Below, in pieces: positions 20,321 to 38,106 of a stretch of DNA of 57,474 nucleotides (the first letter of the stretch is position 1; each line of letters starts with the position of its first letter). The stretch covers positions 1 to 57,474 of IMG/VR virus record IMGVR_UViG_3300046777_000741; one strand, written 5' to 3'. Source of the DNA: a virus. Lineage: Duplodnaviria > Caudoviricetes. A program made the translations under genes and the position numbers. Below the pieces are notes generated by a model. The model had not been told where the DNA came from and made no database searches. It saw only the letters and a list, made by a program, of their open reading frames with translations.

Positions 20321-20791
20321 ATGAGGAAAAGGAGTCGATATCGCCCTCGTGCGGTGTTTGTGAACCCGGTTGCTTATGTGCTCGAAGGGTTCACGCCGGT
20401 CTCGCGTCATGGTCAGTACCTGATCGATCTGAAGATCAAGAACCACGATGCACTGGCGGCCCTGACAAGGGGTCAGGCAACGCAGGCGGAGATAGAGCTT
20501 CTGATCTCATGCGCCAACATCACTGAGGCCCTCTATCGCATGGGCTTTGGCAACGAGTATGGGGATGTGGTCAAGCAGGGACAGGACTCACTTGTGGCTG
20601 TTGGTAGGCGTGGTGTTCAAACTGGGAAATTCATTTTGAAGGCGCAGGAGATGTCTGCTCTGAATCAACTGATGGAGTTGCATGACGCCCAGATGGAGGT
20701 CATCACCATCAAGGACATGGAGCAGGCCGTTGCGATTGTCAAAAAAGAGTTTGAGCAAAAGAAGATGCGATCCATCGTGGAGAAATCATGA
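20321..20791 (+). CDS. Conserved hypothetical phage protein
   Basis: MRKRSRYRPR basic N-terminus, ELHDAQ motif. Confidence 0.75.
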   Translation: MRKRSRYRPRAVFVNPVAYVLEGFTPVSRHGQYLIDLKIKNHDALAALTRGQATQAEIELLISCANITEALYRMGFGNEYGDVVKQGQDSLVAVGRRGVQTGKFILKAQEMSALNQLMELHDAQMEVITIKDMEQAVAIVKKEFEQKKMRSIVEKS

Positions 20792-21129
20792 ACAAGCTAC
20801 CAGTCTTTTTTGCCTTGGCCCTCTCGATGAGCGCCGCTCACGCCGAATTCAAAGATGGCAACAAGCTGCTTCGAGAGTTGAGGGGTGACAACATCGATCA
20901 AGTACATGCAATGGGCTATGTGATCGGCGTAGCTGATGCCCTTCGCGGGATAACTCATTGCCCCCCCTCGAATGTGACAGTCGGACAGCTTTCAGACATG
21001 GTCAAGCAACATCTTGAGGCGTCTCCCTCCACCCGTCATTTGACGGCGGATGTCCATGTGGGGTTTGTTCTCAAGCAGGCATGGCCGTGCGCGAACAACA
21101 ACTCCAAAGGCACGAGGGGTGGCGTGTGA
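20788..21129 (+). CDS. Rap1a/Tai family immunity-like secreted protein
   Basis: Signal peptide ending AHA; DGNKL..GYVIGVAD..C.P.NVT.GQ..D.V..HL...P..RH..A...V...L..AWPC. Confidence 0.75.
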   Translation: MNKLPVFFALALSMSAAHAEFKDGNKLLRELRGDNIDQVHAMGYVIGVADALRGITHCPPSNVTVGQLSDMVKQHLEASPSTRHLTADVHVGFVLKQAWPCANNNSKGTRGGV

Positions 21130-23880: not shown

Positions 23881-24275
23881 GCATCGACGTGATGAAACAG
23901 GCGCTGGAGGCGCTGGACTCAGACAACCCAGACATTCAACTTAGAGCAGCCGCCGCCCTACGCCTCGCCATTGAGCAGGCCGAGAAGCAGGAGCCGGTGG
24001 CGTGGACTGGACTGACAAACGCTGAAGCCTACATTTTCATCAATGAGTACATCGGCCCTGTCAATGAGTGGAATCTAAAGGCTGTCCGCGCCATTGAAGA
24101 CAAACTTCGCAAGAAGAACACCGCCCCGCCCCAGCGCCAGCCGTTGACGGATGAGGAGCTAGATACTGTTACCCAAAAGTGGGCAGGCGCTCCGGTCGAT
24201 CTCCATCGCTTGGTGTTGTGCCGTGAATATGCCCGCGCCATCGAACGCGCCCACGGGATCGGGGGTGAGGCATGA
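23877..24275 (+). CDS. Hypothetical modular protein
   Basis: MKQALEAL, QEPVAW, PLTDEE, ARAIERAHGI modules typical of phage variable regions. Confidence 0.75.
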   Translation: MSIDVMKQALEALDSDNPDIQLRAAAALRLAIEQAEKQEPVAWTGLTNAEAYIFINEYIGPVNEWNLKAVRAIEDKLRKKNTAPPQRQPLTDEELDTVTQKWAGAPVDLHRLVLCREYARAIERAHGIGGEA

Positions 24276-24367
24276 CTGCGATCTTTGTTGTCCTGCTGGC
24301 CCTGCTTGCATTTGGCATCTCTTCCCTGCTGGCGCTACTGATCGTCTTGGATATATATTCCGACTAA
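24272..24367 (+). CDS. 31-aa single-TM peptide (not in ORF track)
   Basis: MTAIFVVLLALLAFGISSLLALLIVLDIYSD*; ATGA overlap. Confidence 0.55.
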   Translation: MTAIFVVLLALLAFGISSLLALLIVLDIYSD

Positions 24368-24378
24368 ATTGTGTGGGC

Positions 24379-24407
24379 TTTACAACTCTTGAAGTTTCTG
24401 TTCAAAT
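24379..24407 (+). promoter_or_regulatory. Promoter with operator TTGAA-N7-TTCAA, copy 4 (24389-24405)
   Basis: TTTACA at 24379-24384; TTGAA GTTTCTG TTCAA in the same register as copy 2. Confidence 0.7.
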
Positions 24408-24446
24408 ACAGATACGGCAATGACGCCGGTTTAATGAAAGACAGAC

Positions 24447-24686
24447 ATGACCTACATCACCACGATCGAGACCCAGATCAACGGCGAGTCCGTGACCCTT
24501 GGCGTCACCCACTTCGAGCGCCATGAGGGCAATGGCTCCATGTACAGCGCCGCCACGGATCTGGACTACTACGGCTGGACGGAGTGCTACTACGACATCC
24601 TCGATGAAGAGGGCCGTAAGCTGGCTATCGAGCCGAGCGAAAAAGACCTTGACCGCCTGCACTGCCTGATCGCTGAAACCCTGTGA
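24447..24686 (+). CDS. Hypothetical acidic protein
   Basis: D.DYYGWTE..Y.ILD..GR motif; 79 aa. Confidence 0.7.
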   Translation: MTYITTIETQINGESVTLGVTHFERHEGNGSMYSAATDLDYYGWTECYYDILDEEGRKLAIEPSEKDLDRLHCLIAETL

Positions 24687-25006
24687 TGGAGACGACCATG
24701 AAATACGCCAACCTCTGCATGTATTCCGATGTCACCCCCTACGAGATCGTTCGGGTGATCAGCGACAAGACCATCGAGATCCGCGAGATGGACGCCGAAC
24801 TGGCTCCTGGCGAGCGCCCCGAGATCATCCCGGGTGGATTCTCTGGCCACTGCACCAACCAGCGCAGCCTCAAGTACGTCATCACCAGCAACCCCGAGAA
24901 CAAGGTCATCCGGGCCCGTCTGCGTAAGGATGGGGACTACCACAGCCCCTATGGCCGCCACATCCTGAGCGAGGAGCCCCGCAGGTTCTACGACTACAAT
25001 TTCTGA
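24683..25006 (+). CDS. Hypothetical protein
   Basis: YSDV.PYEIVRV.S.KT..FYDYNF motif. Confidence 0.75.
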   Translation: MMETTMKYANLCMYSDVTPYEIVRVISDKTIEIREMDAELAPGERPEIIPGGFSGHCTNQRSLKYVITSNPENKVIRARLRKDGDYHSPYGRHILSEEPRRFYDYNF

Positions 25007-25013
25007 CAGGCAA

Positions 25014-25224
25014 GCCCCCGAGAGGGGGCCAACACGCATGGGGATTGGTGGACGCCTGAAAAGGTCAAGAGGTCGCACCAATTGGACAGGATGGAAGGTC
25101 ATTAGTCCCCAGCCGTGTTGGTGAATGCGTAGGCTGATACGCGCCTCGGCTCAACAAAACCGAGAATTGGCGGCTAAGTACGCAGCGTTAACCGTATGCC
25201 GGAGATCAGCGCCGGCCACCAACA
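25014..25224 (+). ncRNA. Candidate structured RNA (long stem plus multibranch domain with kissing loops)
   Basis: Multiple perfect stems in a 290-nt intergenic region; loops GCTGAT and ATCAGC are complementary. Confidence 0.7.
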
Positions 25225-25232
25225 ACCTACAT

Positions 25233-25262
25233 TTGCCCCGATCTTGAACAAGGCGGTAAACT
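25233..25262 (+). promoter_or_regulatory. Possible promoter for terminase genes
   Basis: TTGCCC, 18 nt, TAAACT. Confidence 0.35.
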
Positions 25263-25293
25263 CTGGCCATCCAAATGTCTCTGAAAGAACGAG

Positions 25294-25842
25294 ATGGCAG
25301 ACGAAACACCAGATCAGGGTAAACCCGAGGGGTTGGCCGCAAAAAAGAAGACGGGCCGACCTTCTAAATACACCCCCGAGATAGCCCGTCAGATGTGCGA
25401 GATGCTCGCTGATGGCATTCCCCTCAGGGAGATATGCAGGAACGAAGGCTTCCCCGCTTGGAGGACGGTCTACGACTGGATGTATCAGGATGACGCTCGT
25501 GGGGCTGAGGGCGTCGGTCTTTCCGCAGCGATCGCCCGTGCGCGTGAGGTTGGGCAGGACGCCATGGCTGAGAGGGCCTACATGGAGATGTACGAGCCTC
25601 CTGAGCGCATCCTGAGCGAGGGCGGGGGCAAGATCGATCCTGGCTACGTCCAGCTAGTCAAGGCCCGGGCGGAGATCACCCTCAAGCTCCTGGCCAAGTG
25701 GAACCCTAAGCGGTACGGTGACCGCACCACGATCGCTGGTGATGCCGAGAACCCGATCGAGGTCAAGAACGAGGCTCTGGACATCATGTCCGACATCATC
25801 CGGAACCTAGAGCTTCAGCGCCAGAACCGCGCCAATGGCTGA
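25294..25842 (+). CDS. terS: Terminase small subunit (Sf6 gp1-like)
   Basis: GRPSKYTPE...C..LADG..LR.IC....P...TVY.W HTH; K.NPKRYGD; directly upstream of TerL. Confidence 0.85.
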   Translation: MADETPDQGKPEGLAAKKKTGRPSKYTPEIARQMCEMLADGIPLREICRNEGFPAWRTVYDWMYQDDARGAEGVGLSAAIARAREVGQDAMAERAYMEMYEPPERILSEGGGKIDPGYVQLVKARAEITLKLLAKWNPKRYGDRTTIAGDAENPIEVKNEALDIMSDIIRNLELQRQNRANG

Positions 25843-27277
25843 CATACTGGAGACCCTGCGCTCCCCGCTGGTGGCGGAGAACCTGCCCAAGCTGCCGCCC
25901 ACCCACCAGATGGCCTTCGCCAAACGGGCAGCATGGCTGGCGCAGGCCCACGATCACCAGATCCTGCCCCACGGGGACTGGTGGTCAATCTGGCTGCTGC
26001 TGGCAGGCCGCGGCGCTGGAAAGACCCGCACCGCCGCGGAACAGATCTGGTGGTGGGCGTGGGAGTTCCCCGCCACCCGTTGGCTGGTCTCGGCCCCCAC
26101 CTCCTCCGATGTCCGCTCCACCTGCTTCGAGGGTGACTCGGGGCTCATGTCCGTCATCCCGCCGATCCTGATCGAGGATTACAACAAAGCATTACATGAG
26201 TTGAAGCTGGTCAATGGGTCGCTGATCAAGGGCATCCCGGCCTCGGAGCCCGAGCGTTTCCGGGGGCCTCAGTTTCACGGGGGCTGGTGCGATGAGCTTG
26301 CGGCATGGGAGTACCTGCAAGAGGCCTGGGATCAGATGCAGTTCGGCATGCGCCTGAAGATCGCTGGTGACCCCGCCTTCAAGACCCGCCTGATCTGCAC
26401 TACCACCCCGAAGCCCAAGGATCTGATCGTCGAGCTTGTGGGCCGGGAGGGTGACGATGTCCACCTGACCACCGCCTCGACCTACTCGAACATCGCCAAC
26501 CTGTCGGACAACTTCCGCAAGCAGATTCTTCAGTACGAAGGTACTAAGCTGGGTCGGCAGGAGATCTACGCCGAGATCCTCGACCCGGAGGATGCCGGTA
26601 TCGTCAAGCGATCGTGGTTCAAGCTCTGGCCTGCGGACAAGCCCCTGCCTAAGCTGGAGTACATCGTCCAGTCCTATGACTGTGCGTTCACCGACAAGGC
26701 CAACAACGACCCGACCGCCTCGATCACGTTCGGGGTGTTCAAGCCCATGGACGGGCCGATGTCCGTGCTGGTGATCGATGCGTGGCAGGACAGGCTCCAG
26801 TACCCCGACCTCAAGCCCAAGGTGCTGGAGGAGTACGAGGTTATCTACGGGGATGGTAAGGACGCTCGCCGGGTGGATCTGGTGCTGGTCGAGGAGAAGG
26901 CCGCTGGCATCTCCCTGATCCAAGACCTCCAGCGAGCCCATGTGTTCGTGCGTGGCTACAACCCAGGCAGGGCCGACAAGATGCAGCGCCTGTCGATCAT
27001 CGCCAACATCATCCGGGCAGGCAGGGTCTGGATACCCGAGTCCAGTGTCAACAAGGGCTATGTCCGGGACTGGGCCGAGGGGATGGTCAGCCAGATCTGC
27101 GCCTTCCCCGATACGACCCACGACGACTTCTGTGACGCCATGAGTCAGGCCCTGCGCTATCTGCGGGACGCTGGGTGGCTCAACATCGATCCTCCCCCGC
27201 CGGAGGCATACGACGAGGAAGATGTGATTGACGCCGGCTGGGAGTTCCGGCGCAGGGAGAACCCCTATGCCGTTTGA
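25835..27277 (+). CDS. terL: Terminase large subunit
   Basis: Walker A LAGRGAGKT, Walker B WCDE, motif III TTTP, nuclease residues QSYD and HDDFCDA. Confidence 0.95.
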   Translation: MADILETLRSPLVAENLPKLPPTHQMAFAKRAAWLAQAHDHQILPHGDWWSIWLLLAGRGAGKTRTAAEQIWWWAWEFPATRWLVSAPTSSDVRSTCFEGDSGLMSVIPPILIEDYNKALHELKLVNGSLIKGIPASEPERFRGPQFHGGWCDELAAWEYLQEAWDQMQFGMRLKIAGDPAFKTRLICTTTPKPKDLIVELVGREGDDVHLTTASTYSNIANLSDNFRKQILQYEGTKLGRQEIYAEILDPEDAGIVKRSWFKLWPADKPLPKLEYIVQSYDCAFTDKANNDPTASITFGVFKPMDGPMSVLVIDAWQDRLQYPDLKPKVLEEYEVIYGDGKDARRVDLVLVEEKAAGISLIQDLQRAHVFVRGYNPGRADKMQRLSIIANIIRAGRVWIPESSVNKGYVRDWAEGMVSQICAFPDTTHDDFCDAMSQALRYLRDAGWLNIDPPPPEAYDEEDVIDAGWEFRRRENPYAV

Positions 27278-28488: not shown

Positions 28489-31485
28489 ATGCCCAAAAAG
28501 ACCGGCAAGCTGGCAGACGCTCTGTTCGGCCAACCCGAAGAAAAAGCTGCCTTCGGCGTCTTTCCCCAGATGAAGCCCCGCCGGTCTCAGCAAGACCCTG
28601 AGGCTGCCAAGAACTTCCCCGTTGACGTTGCCCGAGGATTCGCCTCTGGTGTTCTGGGAGCCCCCGGTGACATCGAGTCCCTGATCCGGCTGCTGCCCGG
28701 GCTGGATGAGAAGACCGTCCTGCCGACCAGCGAGGAAATCGAGAAGCGCATTCCCCTGCGGTCTGACACCCCCGTGAGCCGTGCGGCCACTGGAATGGGC
28801 CAACTGGGTGGCGGCTTCTACATGGGCCCGGGCTCCCCGCTTCGCCTTGCTGCTGGCCTGCCTGGGGCTGTTGTAAGCGCCAGCAAGGACTTTGCAATGG
28901 CGGCTGGATCGTCCGGCCCCCGCATCTTTGTTGGCCCGAAGGCCAAGACATGGGATCAGGCTGCTGCCGATGCCGCTGCTCGACTGGAGAAGCAAGGCAT
29001 TGATCCCGTCGAGATCTGGAAGCAGACGGGCACCTTCCGTGGGGTTGACGGCATCCTGCGCCAAGAGATCGACGATCGCGCCGCCTTGTTCCTTACGCCC
29101 GATGAGCGCAAGGAGATGGCCGCTGTGATTAAGGGCGGCATCGATGTCCTGAAGGAAAAAATCAAGACCACCCCGCAGAAGGATCTGTTCCCGAAAGCTC
29201 TGACCGAGGCCAAGAAGGATGTGCGCGAGAAGATCGCCACCGCCAAGGAAGAGCTTGCTGATTACAAGAAAGACCCAAGCCTGACCGAGGCAAAGGCGTA
29301 TACGGTCTTTCACCACCCGGAGCTTTACAAGGCATATCCAGAGCTTGCAAAAATTCCGGTCGAGACTGGCGGCTATGGCGGGGAAGGAACCCGCGGCAGC
29401 TTGAGCATTTTCGAGAAGAGTGACAAAAGCCCCGGCTCGATGTCGATGGACATTTATCAATCCGGCTTGCAGCGCAACCCGACCTCGACGACTCTGCACG
29501 AGATGCAGCATGCCGTGCAGACGCTGGAGGGCATGAGCCCCGGCGGCAATCAGGCTATGGCCTTCAAAGATCCTCGTGCGTTCGACATCCTTCAGCGCCT
29601 ACGCTATGAGATTCAGCAGCCTCCGAGCTTTGCTGAGTTTCAAAAGGCAAACCGCTACCCGACCGAGGATGAGGCCAAGAAGGCTTACTCTGAGTTCGTC
29701 AACAGCTACAACGTGCCGATCACTCCGGCGATAGAGCGCGACCTTCAGGAAAACGCCGCTCGGGAATACTACAGGCGACTTGCCGGTGAGGCTGAGGCTC
29801 GTGCGGTGCAAGACCGCCAGATGATGACGCCCGAGCAGCGCCGAGATACTCCGCCCGCCGCCAGCTATGACGTTCCGCAGGAGGATCTGCTGACCAAGCC
29901 CCCAAAACAGTACAAGAAGGGCGGCAAGGTTCAGATCTCGGACAACCCCGACACGATGCGAGCCGAGCTTGCCCAGATCAAGCCCACCGAGGTTCGCAGC
30001 AAGCCTGCCCTGGGCGCTGCCAAGGCCTTGCAAAAGGCGCATGAGTTCGTCTCCAAGCCCTTTGGCTACCCCAACCCTCCTGCCGCAATGATCAGCGAGT
30101 TCCTCGGTGTTCCCGCTATTGCCCGGACGCTGGAGCGCGTTGGTTATGGCCAGCCGATCACCAACATCGGCAAGGCCAACGTCCCGCTGCTGCCTGAAGA
30201 CACCTCAGAGACAATCCTGTCCGTGGCTCCATTGGCCTCTGTGACCAAAGGCCTTCCAGTGGGCGCCGCAATTAAAAAATCAGAAAAGGTTCCCGCGGTT
30301 CCGCTTGACATTCCTCGCGTCCGACCGACCAAGCAGGACATTCTGGAGGCCGCCGAGCGAGTGGGGCGCCAGCAAGCCGGAGAGCATGTCAGAAGTCCGC
30401 TGTTGAACAAAACCGAGAACCTTGCTGGCCGTTCAATGGCGGAGTCCAAGCGTGTTCAGGCGCTCAAGTACGAGTTGGAGCCGACAAAAGACATCCCGAA
30501 TCTAGGCGTTTATGAGCCCAAGATCGGCGAGGTAAACATCGCCCTTCCCGGAGATCAGACGGTTGCCGATGTCATCCTGAAGAGCGTTGATGACATTCCT
30601 GTGGGATCTGTCCAAGAGGGCGGCGCCAATTTTGGTCTTGGCAAGCTGGAGCTTCCTGAGGAGAAGCGGGCGTTCTGGGCGTCTAACTTTGGCCCGGCGC
30701 AGATATTCCAGAACAAAGTCACCGAAATCGCAAGGAAGTTTAATACCGATCTTGTCACTGCGTATCACCTTGCCATGGGCACTGATGCCAATAACTTTGC
30801 CCAGCATTTTGCTGACGCAAACCTTCGCGCCATCGACTACTCCAAGATGACAAAAGGTCAGATGGAGGCATTTGATCAAGCCATTGCATATGGGTACATC
30901 AAGAAGAACCCAAAGACCGGCGAGTATGTTCATACCTCATTCCCTGAGTGGCCCGGTATTGCAGATCCTGATGGCGCTTATCTGGCGATGAAGGAAAATC
31001 CAGAGCTTCGAAAGTGGTTCAACAACCGCATGAAGACGCCAAAGCTCACAGAGGCTACCAACATGCCTGATGGCCGCTCGATTGAATGGGCGATCACCGA
31101 GCCCGAGATTCGGAACATGGAGATCAACATGACCGGTTTGTCGGCTGGTCGCATGAAGCCGGGCGCGGAGCTTATCCCCGAGTCTGCCCACCAGACCTAT
31201 AGCCACGATATTCCGGGCACCGCACTGGGCCGTGCGCCAGAGCTTGCGCCTTTCTCGATTAGTTTTCCGGATGTCACAGAATTTGTCCGCCAGAAGTACC
31301 GCCCGCAGGACTTTACTGGCACGATTCAGAAAGTCTTCCCACATCAAGTGGTCGATGAGGCTTATCTGGAAGATCTGGCGACCTACTACAACCAGCTTCG
31401 CAAGGTGCGTGGATTTGCTGAAGGCGGAGCGGTTGATGGTGACATCACCGGTGACGACCTGACCATCGAGGAGCGCCCGCTGTGA
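28489..31485 (+). CDS. Large polyvalent-type protein (LPD23-like domain plus zincin HExxH metallopeptidase-like domain)
   Basis: IWKQTGTFRG.DG.LRQEI.D, HPELYKAYP.L, TLHEMQHAVQ..EG...GG, Y.RLAGEAEAR motifs. Confidence 0.7.
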   Translation: MPKKTGKLADALFGQPEEKAAFGVFPQMKPRRSQQDPEAAKNFPVDVARGFASGVLGAPGDIESLIRLLPGLDEKTVLPTSEEIEKRIPLRSDTPVSRAATGMGQLGGGFYMGPGSPLRLAAGLPGAVVSASKDFAMAAGSSGPRIFVGPKAKTWDQAAADAAARLEKQGIDPVEIWKQTGTFRGVDGILRQEIDDRAALFLTPDERKEMAAVIKGGIDVLKEKIKTTPQKDLFPKALTEAKKDVREKIATAKEELADYKKDPSLTEAKAYTVFHHPELYKAYPELAKIPVETGGYGGEGTRGSLSIFEKSDKSPGSMSMDIYQSGLQRNPTSTTLHEMQHAVQTLEGMSPGGNQAMAFKDPRAFDILQRLRYEIQQPPSFAEFQKANRYPTEDEAKKAYSEFVNSYNVPITPAIERDLQENAAREYYRRLAGEAEARAVQDRQMMTPEQRRDTPPAASYDVPQEDLLTKPPKQYKKGGKVQISDNPDTMRAELAQIKPTEVRSKPALGAAKALQKAHEFVSKPFGYPNPPAAMISEFLGVPAIARTLERVGYGQPITNIGKANVPLLPEDTSETILSVAPLASVTKGLPVGAAIKKSEKVPAVPLDIPRVRPTKQDILEAAERVGRQQAGEHVRSPLLNKTENLAGRSMAESKRVQALKYELEPTKDIPNLGVYEPKIGEVNIALPGDQTVADVILKSVDDIPVGSVQEGGANFGLGKLELPEEKRAFWASNFGPAQIFQNKVTEIARKFNTDLVTAYHLAMGTDANNFAQHFADANLRAIDYSKMTKGQMEAFDQAIAYGYIKKNPKTGEYVHTSFPEWPGIADPDGAYLAMKENPELRKWFNNRMKTPKLTEATNMPDGRSIEWAITEPEIRNMEINMTGLSAGRMKPGAELIPESAHQTYSHDIPGTALGRAPELAPFSISFPDVTEFVRQKYRPQDFTGTIQKVFPHQVVDEAYLEDLATYYNQLRKVRGFAEGGAVDGDITGDDLTIEERPL

Positions 31486-37530: not shown

Positions 37531-38106
37531 ATGACTGCCGTGTACTCGCTCTACATTGCTACCAACGTGGTGAATGGTAGGCAGTACATTGGTCTCACAA
37601 AGGAGTATCAAAAGCGTCTGATCTCCCATAAGTGCGCCAAGACAAAGTCCGTCTTTCATGAGGCCATCCGCCAACATGGTTTTGACAAGTTCGTCTTCTC
37701 TCATATTGCTGATGCCTTCGATTTAGAGGCGGCCTGTGATCTTGAACGCATGCTGATTCAACAGCACAACACCTTGACCCCCAACGGATACAACATGACC
37801 GTTGGAGGCCAAATTGGGCCTGTTGGATACAAACATAACGCGGAATCTAAGGCGAAGATCGCTGAGGCAAACCGCAATCGAAACCCCGAAGTCAAAGAGA
37901 AGTTCCGTTTGGCAAAGGTAGGCGTTAAGCAGACTGATGCCTTCAAGTCGAATGCTAGGGCCAAGTCAAAAGAGGTCTGGTCTGACAAAGCACGGCGCGA
38001 AGCGCAAAGTCTTCGCCTCAAGGAATCTTGGGCGAAACGTCGACTTGCCAAGGAGCAAGCTGATAGACTTCTACATAACTTAAGTTTGGAGAACTGTCAT
38101 GACTGA
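37531..38106 (+). mobile_element. Free-standing GIY-YIG homing endonuclease with NUMOD3-like tail
   Basis: LYIATN.VNGRQYIG, R...H, E...I, GYN...GG, H..ESKAKI. Confidence 0.85.

Follow-up and report, generated by a model that had tools for sequence, protein, structure and literature searches.

A tRNA-like phage RNA with kissing loops and a hypervariable arm: a candidate small-RNA gene released from a leader

We analyzed the intergenic region upstream of the terminase genes in IMG/VR virus record IMGVR_UViG_3300046777_000741 (Duplodnaviria; Caudoviricetes), a complete virus record of 57,474 bp that is referred to here as the window. A 287-nt gap (25007-25293), located between an upstream 107-amino-acid (aa) open reading frame (ORF) and the downstream terminase genes, contains an RNA element on the + strand that consists of a hairpin, a leader (domain A) and a cloverleaf-like domain B. 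Domain B is conserved far beyond chance, and we propose that the gap probably encodes an independent small-RNA gene with its leader, the RNA being matured from a precursor by host RNA-processing enzymes and acting in trans. The mature RNA is predicted to span about 25117-25227 on the + strand. The elements of the window copy are as follows.

25014..25029, + strand: hairpin 0, GCCCCC (25014-19)-GAGA-GGGGGC (25024-29), which abuts the 5' strand of the leader
25030..25050, + strand: 5' strand of the leader (domain A); CAACACG (25030-36) pairs with 25114-20 in the minimum free energy (MFE) fold
25039-50 with 25100-11, + strand: inner helix of the leader in the MFE fold, with TGGGGATTGGTG as its 5' strand
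25051..25099, + strand: variable apical part of domain A, which differs among relatives
25100..25116, + strand: 3' strand of the leader, cATTAGTCCCCAGCCGT, whose last nucleotide is the near-invariant U at -1 (25116)
25117..25123, + strand: acceptor-like 5' strand, GTTGGTG, with G1 at 25117; it pairs with leader positions 25030-36 or with 25217-23
25124..25126, + strand: linker, AA (+U), at the position of transfer RNA (tRNA) nucleotides 8-9
25127..25142, + strand: hairpin 1 (D-arm-like), GCGTA-GGCTGA-TACGC, with the loop segment GCUGA (25133-37) as a kissing partner
25143..25197, + strand: hypervariable arm of 55 nt, where the anticodon and variable arms would sit
25198..25216, + strand: hairpin 3 (T-arm-like), GCCGG-AGATCAGCG-CCGGC, with the loop segment UCAGC (25206-10) as the other kissing partner
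25217..25227, + strand: acceptor-like 3' strand and tail, CACCAAC (25217-23) and then A-ACC, following hairpin 3 with no spacer

The original prediction for this locus, made from the letters of the sequence, had described a two-state structured RNA with kissing loops immediately upstream of terminase. Direct reading of the sequence confirmed the hairpin GCCCCC-GAGA-GGGGGC at 25014-29 as well as both closing helices, that of domain A formed by CCAACACG (25029-36) with CGTGTTGG (25114-21) and that of domain B by TGTTGGTG (25116-23) with CACCAACA (25217-24). Two of the four arms assigned to domain B, GCGTA (25127-31)/TACGC (25138-42) and GCCGG (25198-202)/CCGGC (25212-16), are present and conserved, as hairpin 1 and hairpin 3 respectively. 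The other two, CTCGG (25145-49)/CCGAG (25160-64) and GCGG.TAA/TTA.CCGT, are present in the window but lie within the hypervariable segment and are not conserved. Folded alone, domain B adopted the proposed cloverleaf as its MFE structure (-38.8 kcal/mol, z -1.9). The folding energy of hairpin 0 together with domain A was strong (z -4.6), and that of the full 287-nt gap was unremarkable on the + strand (z -0.84).

We examined the conservation of domain B in other IMG/VR stretches. The exact 21-mer CCGTGTTGGTGAATGCGTAGG, which covers the closing helix and hairpin 1, was found in 31 other stretches, and the pattern of the 3' block in 114. A MAFFT alignment of 22 sequences, inspected also by eye, displayed constant blocks at the 5' and 3' ends with a variable middle between them; 99.5% of its 418 pair cells were paired, with double-sided changes in 4 of 19 pairs. 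A covariance model searched on 97 sources (the window and 96 loci, leaving out exact duplicates and loci missing from the listing used) recovered 110 copies with E values up to 0.001. The loop-loop pairs were added to the resulting 110-copy alignment as a pseudoknot, the model itself being built without them. Standard pairs occupied 99.0% of the 2393 pair cells. The original prediction had named covariation as a check on the RNA, and compensatory, double-sided changes were found in 13 of the 23 pairs (124 cells). None of 500 shuffles reached any of five measures, and partners slid out of register were only 25-63% paired. Helix 1, the acceptor-like helix, was 98.4% paired; helix 2 (hairpin 1) was 99.2% paired with compensatory changes in all five of its pairs, and helix 5 (hairpin 3) was 99.6% paired with such changes in four of five. 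The RNA is read from the + strand, since many of the changes yield G-U pairs, whose counterparts on the opposite strand are A-C mismatches. The proposal of a structured RNA on the + strand is therefore supported by the pairing and by the compensatory changes in homologues.

The loops of hairpins 1 and 3 can form five Watson-Crick loop-loop pairs, GCUGA (25133-37) with UCAGC (25206-10), consistent with the complementarity of GCTGAT (25133-38) and ATCAGC (25205-10) noted in the original prediction. The kissing pair G25133-C25210 was read across the family as GC (57), GU (23), AU (17) or another combination (4). This fifth pair is a case of true covariation, and the kissing loops are real. The loop of hairpin 3 is 9 nt long because the kissing pair takes the place of a possible inner G-C pair. 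A kiss within one molecule and a kiss between two molecules look the same in the sequence.

The remaining geometry of domain B resembles that of a tRNA (RF00005). The 7-bp closing helix and the 5-bp stem of hairpin 3 are contiguous and produce a 12-bp stack of the tRNA type, and a 2-nt linker joins the acceptor-like strand to a hairpin in the D position. For counts of sequence features we used 106 distinct copies: the acceptor-like pair GTTGGTG/CACCAAC was found in 91, the linker AA in 87, U at -1 in 104 and A at the discriminator position, a purine as in tRNA, in 89, and the tail read A (89), A (78), C (78) and C (52). Five copies that have no leader (L140, L145, L182, L198 and L208; L numbers denote loci) carry a TAnnnT -10-like hexamer that ends exactly 6 nt before G1. 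We took the G of GUUGGUG as +1 because this spacing makes it the expected transcription start. At L105, a true tRNA-Arg with an identical acceptor stem lies directly upstream of the element. The likeness to tRNA thus includes the shared acceptor stem at L105, the U at -1 and a place in tRNA operons on the same strand. In contrast to tRNA, the elbow is built from five Watson-Crick loop-loop pairs without the T-loop and D-loop consensus, a hypervariable segment of 35-147 nt replaces the anticodon stem-loop, and the encoded tail is A-ACC rather than CCA. The T-loop motif (UUCRANY) and the GG register of the D-loop are absent, the window loops reading GGCUGA and AGAUCAGCG, and so is an anticodon arm with a 5-bp stem and 7-nt loop; the local hairpin of the window at that place has a 10-nt loop. 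The statement in the original prediction that domain B has no T-loop or tRNA geometry holds for the T-loop but fails for the geometry, given the 7+5 bp stack, the 2-nt linker, the U at -1 and the tRNA neighbours. We conclude that the element represents a family of small-RNA genes that either descends from tRNA or has converged on it.

The arm between hairpins 1 and 3 ranged from 35 to 147 nt in the 110 copies, with a median of 58.5 nt, and the copies fell into 90 arm similarity clusters. Certain arm classes recurred: P1 and Stx2a_WGPS2 share one, and HK620 and ZCKP8 share another. L097 and L106 have the same flanks as L112 but unrelated arms. A stable chassis that presents a variable arm is our favoured reading of the function. 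We also considered an extended form of this idea, in which the RNA would be a natural "display chassis" with a host-matured tRNA-shaped core, a kissing elbow and an exchangeable effector arm acting as a programmable decoy or guide against factors of the host or of rival phages; dimers or rings like those of packaging RNA (pRNA) might form through the kiss, and the leader stem would be a safety catch until processing. The 88 unrelated arms and the wholesale arm swaps between otherwise identical loci are the basis for this proposal, which we regard as rather unlikely. As a separate observation on the arm, a 14-nt sense copy of part of it, AACAAAACCGAGAA, occurs in the window at 30406-30419, inside a 1002-aa ORF; 2 of 200 shuffles gave a match of such length, which puts it at the edge of chance.

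We evaluated the proposed association of the RNA with terminase, which the original prediction had placed at the early-to-late boundary. The neighbours of the element in the window are as follows.

24683..25006, + strand: upstream ORF of 107 aa, PHROG 19789, function unknown, with its stop codon at 25004-25006
25294-25842, + strand: small terminase subunit gene, a neighbour and not part of the RNA
25835-27277, + strand: large terminase subunit gene, also a neighbour and not part of the RNA

We expected a conserved element upstream of related small terminases, but this was not borne out: among the window and 80 IMG/VR loci with a related small terminase, the element was found only in the window, in L033 and, weakly, in L063. 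IMG/VR copies precede packaging modules of at least six terminase PHROG families and often follow HNH or RusA genes. BLAST located the RNA in 203-205 INPHARED phage records (Klebsiella 60, Pseudomonas 59, Escherichia 35, and others), in varied contexts. The HK620 copy lies between pR'/qut and the annotated late terminator (the pR'-tQ leader), the E. coli H19 copy between a Q-like antiterminator and the holin gene, and the copy of the Stx2 phage Stx2a_WGPS2 behind cI. In P1, one copy is found about 80 nt after tRNA-Asn/tRNA-Thr and a second further on; three paralogues are present in L124. The D3 copy sits between tRNA-Met and tRNA-Gly, under the annotated "orf86" (L227:1905-2219), and the ZCKP8 copy precedes tRNA-Arg and tRNA-Met by 5 nt in one operon, which runs in the opposite orientation to the flanking tail genes. 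ARAGORN called a tRNA within 300 nt of 11 of the 110 copies, on the same strand in all 11. The link to terminase and the early-to-late boundary is consequently not supported, and the element behaves as an independent, gene-like unit.

The RNA is also found in many E. coli genomes. Of 5426 complete genomes of this species, 862 carried the P1/Stx2a type and 108 the HK620 type; in the rows listed, annotation as a non-coding RNA was absent, all 40 of the P1/Stx2a type and 27 of 30 of the HK620 type being featureless, and the other three of the HK620 type overlapping a 'hypothetical protein' coding sequence. A 20-mer of the window was found in one GTDB genome, that of Paludibacterium denitrificans. 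Short ORFs have been annotated across the RNA, namely orf86 in D3, gp60 in ZCKP8 (L226:2013-2111) and, for several Klebsiella phages, entries named 'hypothetical protein'. Such annotations are probably spurious and do not represent genes.

We considered that the inverted repeats might function at the DNA level, as a pac or cos site or another protein-binding site for packaging. The position directly upstream of the small terminase gene, the HNH endonuclease just upstream in some relatives, as in HK97-type cos phages, and the GATC within the invariant hairpin 3 loop are consistent with such a site. However, the pairing is strand-specific with abundant G-U pairs, the loop-loop covariation would be meaningless in duplex DNA, the copies of P1, HK620, D3 and ZCKP8 are far from packaging genes, and the neighbouring terminases come from unrelated families. 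A DNA-level site is very improbable.

The leader of the window RNA offers an alternative partner to the acceptor-like strand. An upstream strand pairs with the 19 nt that precede G1 and with the first 7 acceptor nucleotides. This complementary strand outperformed every one of about 30 control windows taken from its own locus in 74 of 102 distinct copies, and 70 of those 74 leader pairings included at least 5 of the 7 acceptor nucleotides. The leader stem had a median length of 22 bp, and 46 different leader sequences were present among the 70 copies. The inner leader helix covaries in relatives (TGAGGATT/AGTCCTCA, TGAAGATT/AATCTTCA and TGGTGATT/AGTCACCA). From one subfamily to the next, the outer helix, the acceptor strand and the 3' partner of that strand change jointly, reading CAACACG/GUGUUGG/CCAACA in the window and CACAAC/GUUGUG/CACAAC in P1, with HK620 and ZCKP8 having their own versions. 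These joint changes indicate that both mutually exclusive pairings are maintained. The original prediction had pointed out that the two closing helices have TGTTGG in common and exclude each other; both were found to be conserved through covariation and to be nearly isoenergetic. In a nearest-neighbour model, the energy with domain B closed minus that with the 3' strand blocked had a median of +0.6 kcal/mol, and 61 of 93 copies fell within 3 kcal/mol. For the window the values were -67.9 kcal/mol (B closed) and -69.7 kcal/mol (3' strand blocked), an advantage of 1.8 kcal/mol for the leader form, and domain B is not closed in the unconstrained MFE structure of the gap.

The leader has additional features in the family. 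Of 93 leader-bearing copies, 30 have a hairpin directly adjoining the leader strand, compared to 94 of 1860 control positions (5%). The commonest loops of this hairpin are GAAAGA, GAGAGA and GAAA, with the GAAAGA-type class accounting for 15 of the 30, and GCCCCC-GAGA-GGGGGC of the window is one such hairpin; it is not a typical intrinsic terminator because it has no U tract. The apical slot of domain A is occupied in P1, L122, L133 and L209 by a T-arm-like hairpin, GGNNN-TTCGAAT-NNNCC, and in L134 by a sequence that scored 35 bits with the Rfam tRNA model, above its threshold. Copies that start at their own promoter have no domain A. We looked at the leader as a candidate self-cleaving ribozyme and rejected it, as there is no conserved core and leader sequences differ completely among subfamilies.

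The two states raise the possibility, one of the two offered by the original prediction, of a cis-acting switch in which a signal would drive the alternation between leader form and cloverleaf and thereby set terminase read-through or translation. Conservation of both mutually exclusive pairings, their near-equal energies and the position of the window element, 66 nt before the start codon of the small terminase gene, would suit a switch. On the other hand, no terminator is formed in either state and the ribosome-binding site is never hidden, the family is not linked to terminase, promoter-proximal copies without a leader have one state only, and the HK620 element lies upstream of a separate annotated terminator. 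We consider a switch quite improbable. In our preferred reading, the leader form is the precursor and the cloverleaf its product, rather than the two being states of a sensing switch. The original prediction had left the choice between a switch and a processed non-coding RNA; the latter is the better option, and a switch that senses a ligand or signal is without any support.

The comparisons above establish the fold of the RNA, its strand, its conservation, its alternative pairing and its gene-like independence. We propose the following scheme for the small-RNA gene, in which the enzymes, the order of events and any function in trans are inferred. Neither a sigma-70-like promoter nor an intrinsic terminator was found around the element on the + strand of the window, so that the window copy is probably transcribed together with the neighbouring genes. 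In this primary transcript the leader stem of about 22 bp would hold the acceptor 5' strand captive. Host enzymes would cut the leader. Its long duplex would probably be cleaved by RNase III, since a long duplex with drifting sequence resembles RNase III substrates. Cleavage at the invariant U(-1)/G(+1) may be due to RNase P or another enzyme; this invariance, together with the acceptor/T-like stack, suggests RNase P or an enzyme that generates ends in a similar way. Nucleotides at the 3' end would be trimmed in the fashion of a tRNA, and the released acceptor 5' strand would close the cloverleaf. The stable RNA would then act in trans, with the constant chassis responsible for stability and processing and the variable arm for specificity. 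The window copy would need a leader because it is embedded in a longer transcript; copies with their own promoter do without one.

The main rival to this small-RNA gene is a pure processing signal similar to a t-element, in which the fold and the leader duplex would serve only for RNase cuts that split the terminase message from the one upstream or free neighbouring tRNAs, and the excised RNA would be functionless. Such a signal would be in keeping with the 3' border of the element, which in many loci is 5-25 nt upstream of the ribosome-binding site of the following gene, and with the place of the element among tRNAs in P1, D3 and ZCKP8. The window element being without its own promoter or terminator, and the variable arm being under no detectable constraint, would fit as well. 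However, a processing signal would have no need for near-invariant loops or a covarying five-pair kiss, nor for the minimum arm of about 35 nt that is kept everywhere. Moreover, for copies with their own promoter there is no upstream transcript to cut away, and several paralogues per phage are not expected of such a signal. We therefore regard a pure processing signal as unlikely.

Several observations weigh against a trans-acting, tRNA-shaped RNA gene. A search for RNA runs covering 24000-27000 of the window found none; the ends of the RNA, its processing and even its expression are predictions, and we infer the action of RNase III and RNase P on it. The IMG/VR copies were mostly fished with exact motifs of the constant blocks, so that the invariance of the blocks is partly a product of selection, and the 110-copy alignment was fitted to the nested helices of the model. 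Four of the five kissing pairs never vary and are hence uninformative either way. By the defining tests the RNA is not a tRNA, as it lacks the T-loop, the D-loop register and the anticodon arm; ARAGORN found no tRNA genes in the window, calling neither domain A nor domain B, and no tRNA was called within 300 nt of most copies. An Rfam search of 24900-25400 with E values up to 10 yielded only rydB (17.7 bits vs a threshold of 50) and MS2 (12.2 vs 40), both at chance level, and no tRNA match. The arm, in turn, folds no better than dinucleotide shuffles (median z -0.30, 7% below -2, for 97 arms). The 88 non-redundant arms have no k-mer in common beyond chance, with only the last two nucleotides kept (A and then A/U), and the window arm has no antisense match of at least 10 nt to the + strand elsewhere in the genome. 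The variable arm could thus be neutral filler.

We compared the element with known families. At gathering thresholds, Rfam 15 gave no matches over the whole window, and scans of 5 and then 19 related loci placed no family on the element or on the variable arms; the match to an already described motif that the original prediction had allowed for was not found. The YrlA (RF02553) and transfer-messenger RNA (tmRNA) models gave no match on the element and only weak ones on or beside true tRNAs. A literature search that included literal sequence strings, with paywalled papers and supplements outside its scope, found no published description of the RNA. The Pas small RNA preprint (10.64898/2026.05.13.724894) deals with other prophage small RNAs.

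Among phage RNAs that the element brings to mind, the C4/CI antisense RNAs seem close in outline. The C4/CI RNAs of P1, P7 and P4 are small and cloverleaf-like and are excised from the leader of a longer transcript, RNase P making the cut, and the P4 CI RNA has flanking sequences complementary to a segment within the RNA. Our element is likewise a small cloverleaf-like phage RNA with a leader. Unlike C4/CI, it has no similarity to the C4 model and its conserved loops pair with each other rather than with a flanking mRNA. The RF01695 C4 model gave no match on the window, P1, HK620 or Stx2a copies; the same model found a true C4 RNA at L224:410-497 (83.6 bits). This C4 RNA and an isrK RNA (67 bits) lie in the antirepressor region of Stx2a_WGPS2 (L224:410-598, - strand), away from the element. 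The P1 copies are in the tRNA region, which we take to be outside the immI region that holds c4.

T4 rnaC and rnaD (species 1 and 2) are small stable RNAs that are co-transcribed with the phage tRNAs and processed from the same precursors, and their function is unknown. Our element may resemble them in general character; no T4-like phages were among the matches listed. RNase III processing stems are found in the early R sites of T7, the lambda N leader and the leader-trailer stems of ribosomal RNA. Domain A is comparable to them: its duplex measures about 22 bp and may include a small internal loop, its sequence drifts while the pairing is kept, and it flanks an RNA for release. It differs in that one of its strands doubles as the 5' strand of the closing helix of the mature RNA. 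The phi29 pRNA has two mutually complementary hairpin loops in one molecule. The element also has complementary loops, with one covarying pair, and the window copy adjoins packaging genes; however, there is no Rfam match and most family members are away from packaging genes. The locations in P1, HK620, D3 and ZCKP8 argue against a packaging role.

A strongly conserved and covarying RNA has thus been left unannotated in the well-studied phages P1, HK620 and D3 and in Stx2-converting phages, and naming it would correct ORF annotations that are probably spurious. It would add to the known RNAs a tRNA-derived fold whose elbow is rebuilt from Watson-Crick pairs, and it would open a question that is tractable in model systems, namely why a constant tRNA-like chassis with a hypervariable arm is found in so many phages. 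The consequence for the window's terminase genes is modest, at most a processed 5' end on the late message.

We made a few additional observations near copies of the RNA and elsewhere. A weak and degenerate look-alike of the RNA, GTGATGTGGTGAATGCGGCTGAGCGC ... CATCACAAA, is located in the dicF-dicB interval of the Qin prophage of E. coli K-12 (L228:2949-3085) and scored 13.9 bits with an E value of 0.009 when filters were off. The abiF RNA motif (RF03085, 54-56 bits) follows a copy of the RNA directly or after 150 nt in two unrelated IMG/VR loci (L200:1719-1755, - strand, and L148:2788-2824, + strand). Downstream of the RNA in L085 and L108 lies another conserved module, which consists of GCGTAGGCC..GTAGCATCGACATACGC and then a GCYGGATAATCGTAACCRGC hairpin; in L109 the same module takes the place of the 3' half of the RNA. 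In P1, a sub-threshold STnc100 match (33.9 bits vs a threshold of 47) lies at L223:3195-3315 (+ strand), between the second RNA copy and tciA. In the window itself, away from the element, the ORFs at 37531-38106 and 20788-21129 carry a GIY-YIG nuclease domain and a Rap1a immunity-protein domain, respectively. In Klebsiella phage UPM 2146 (L225, record 88138-91340), about 3 kb around the RNA are without an annotated gene or ARAGORN tRNA, and this gene-free region may hold further RNA modules.

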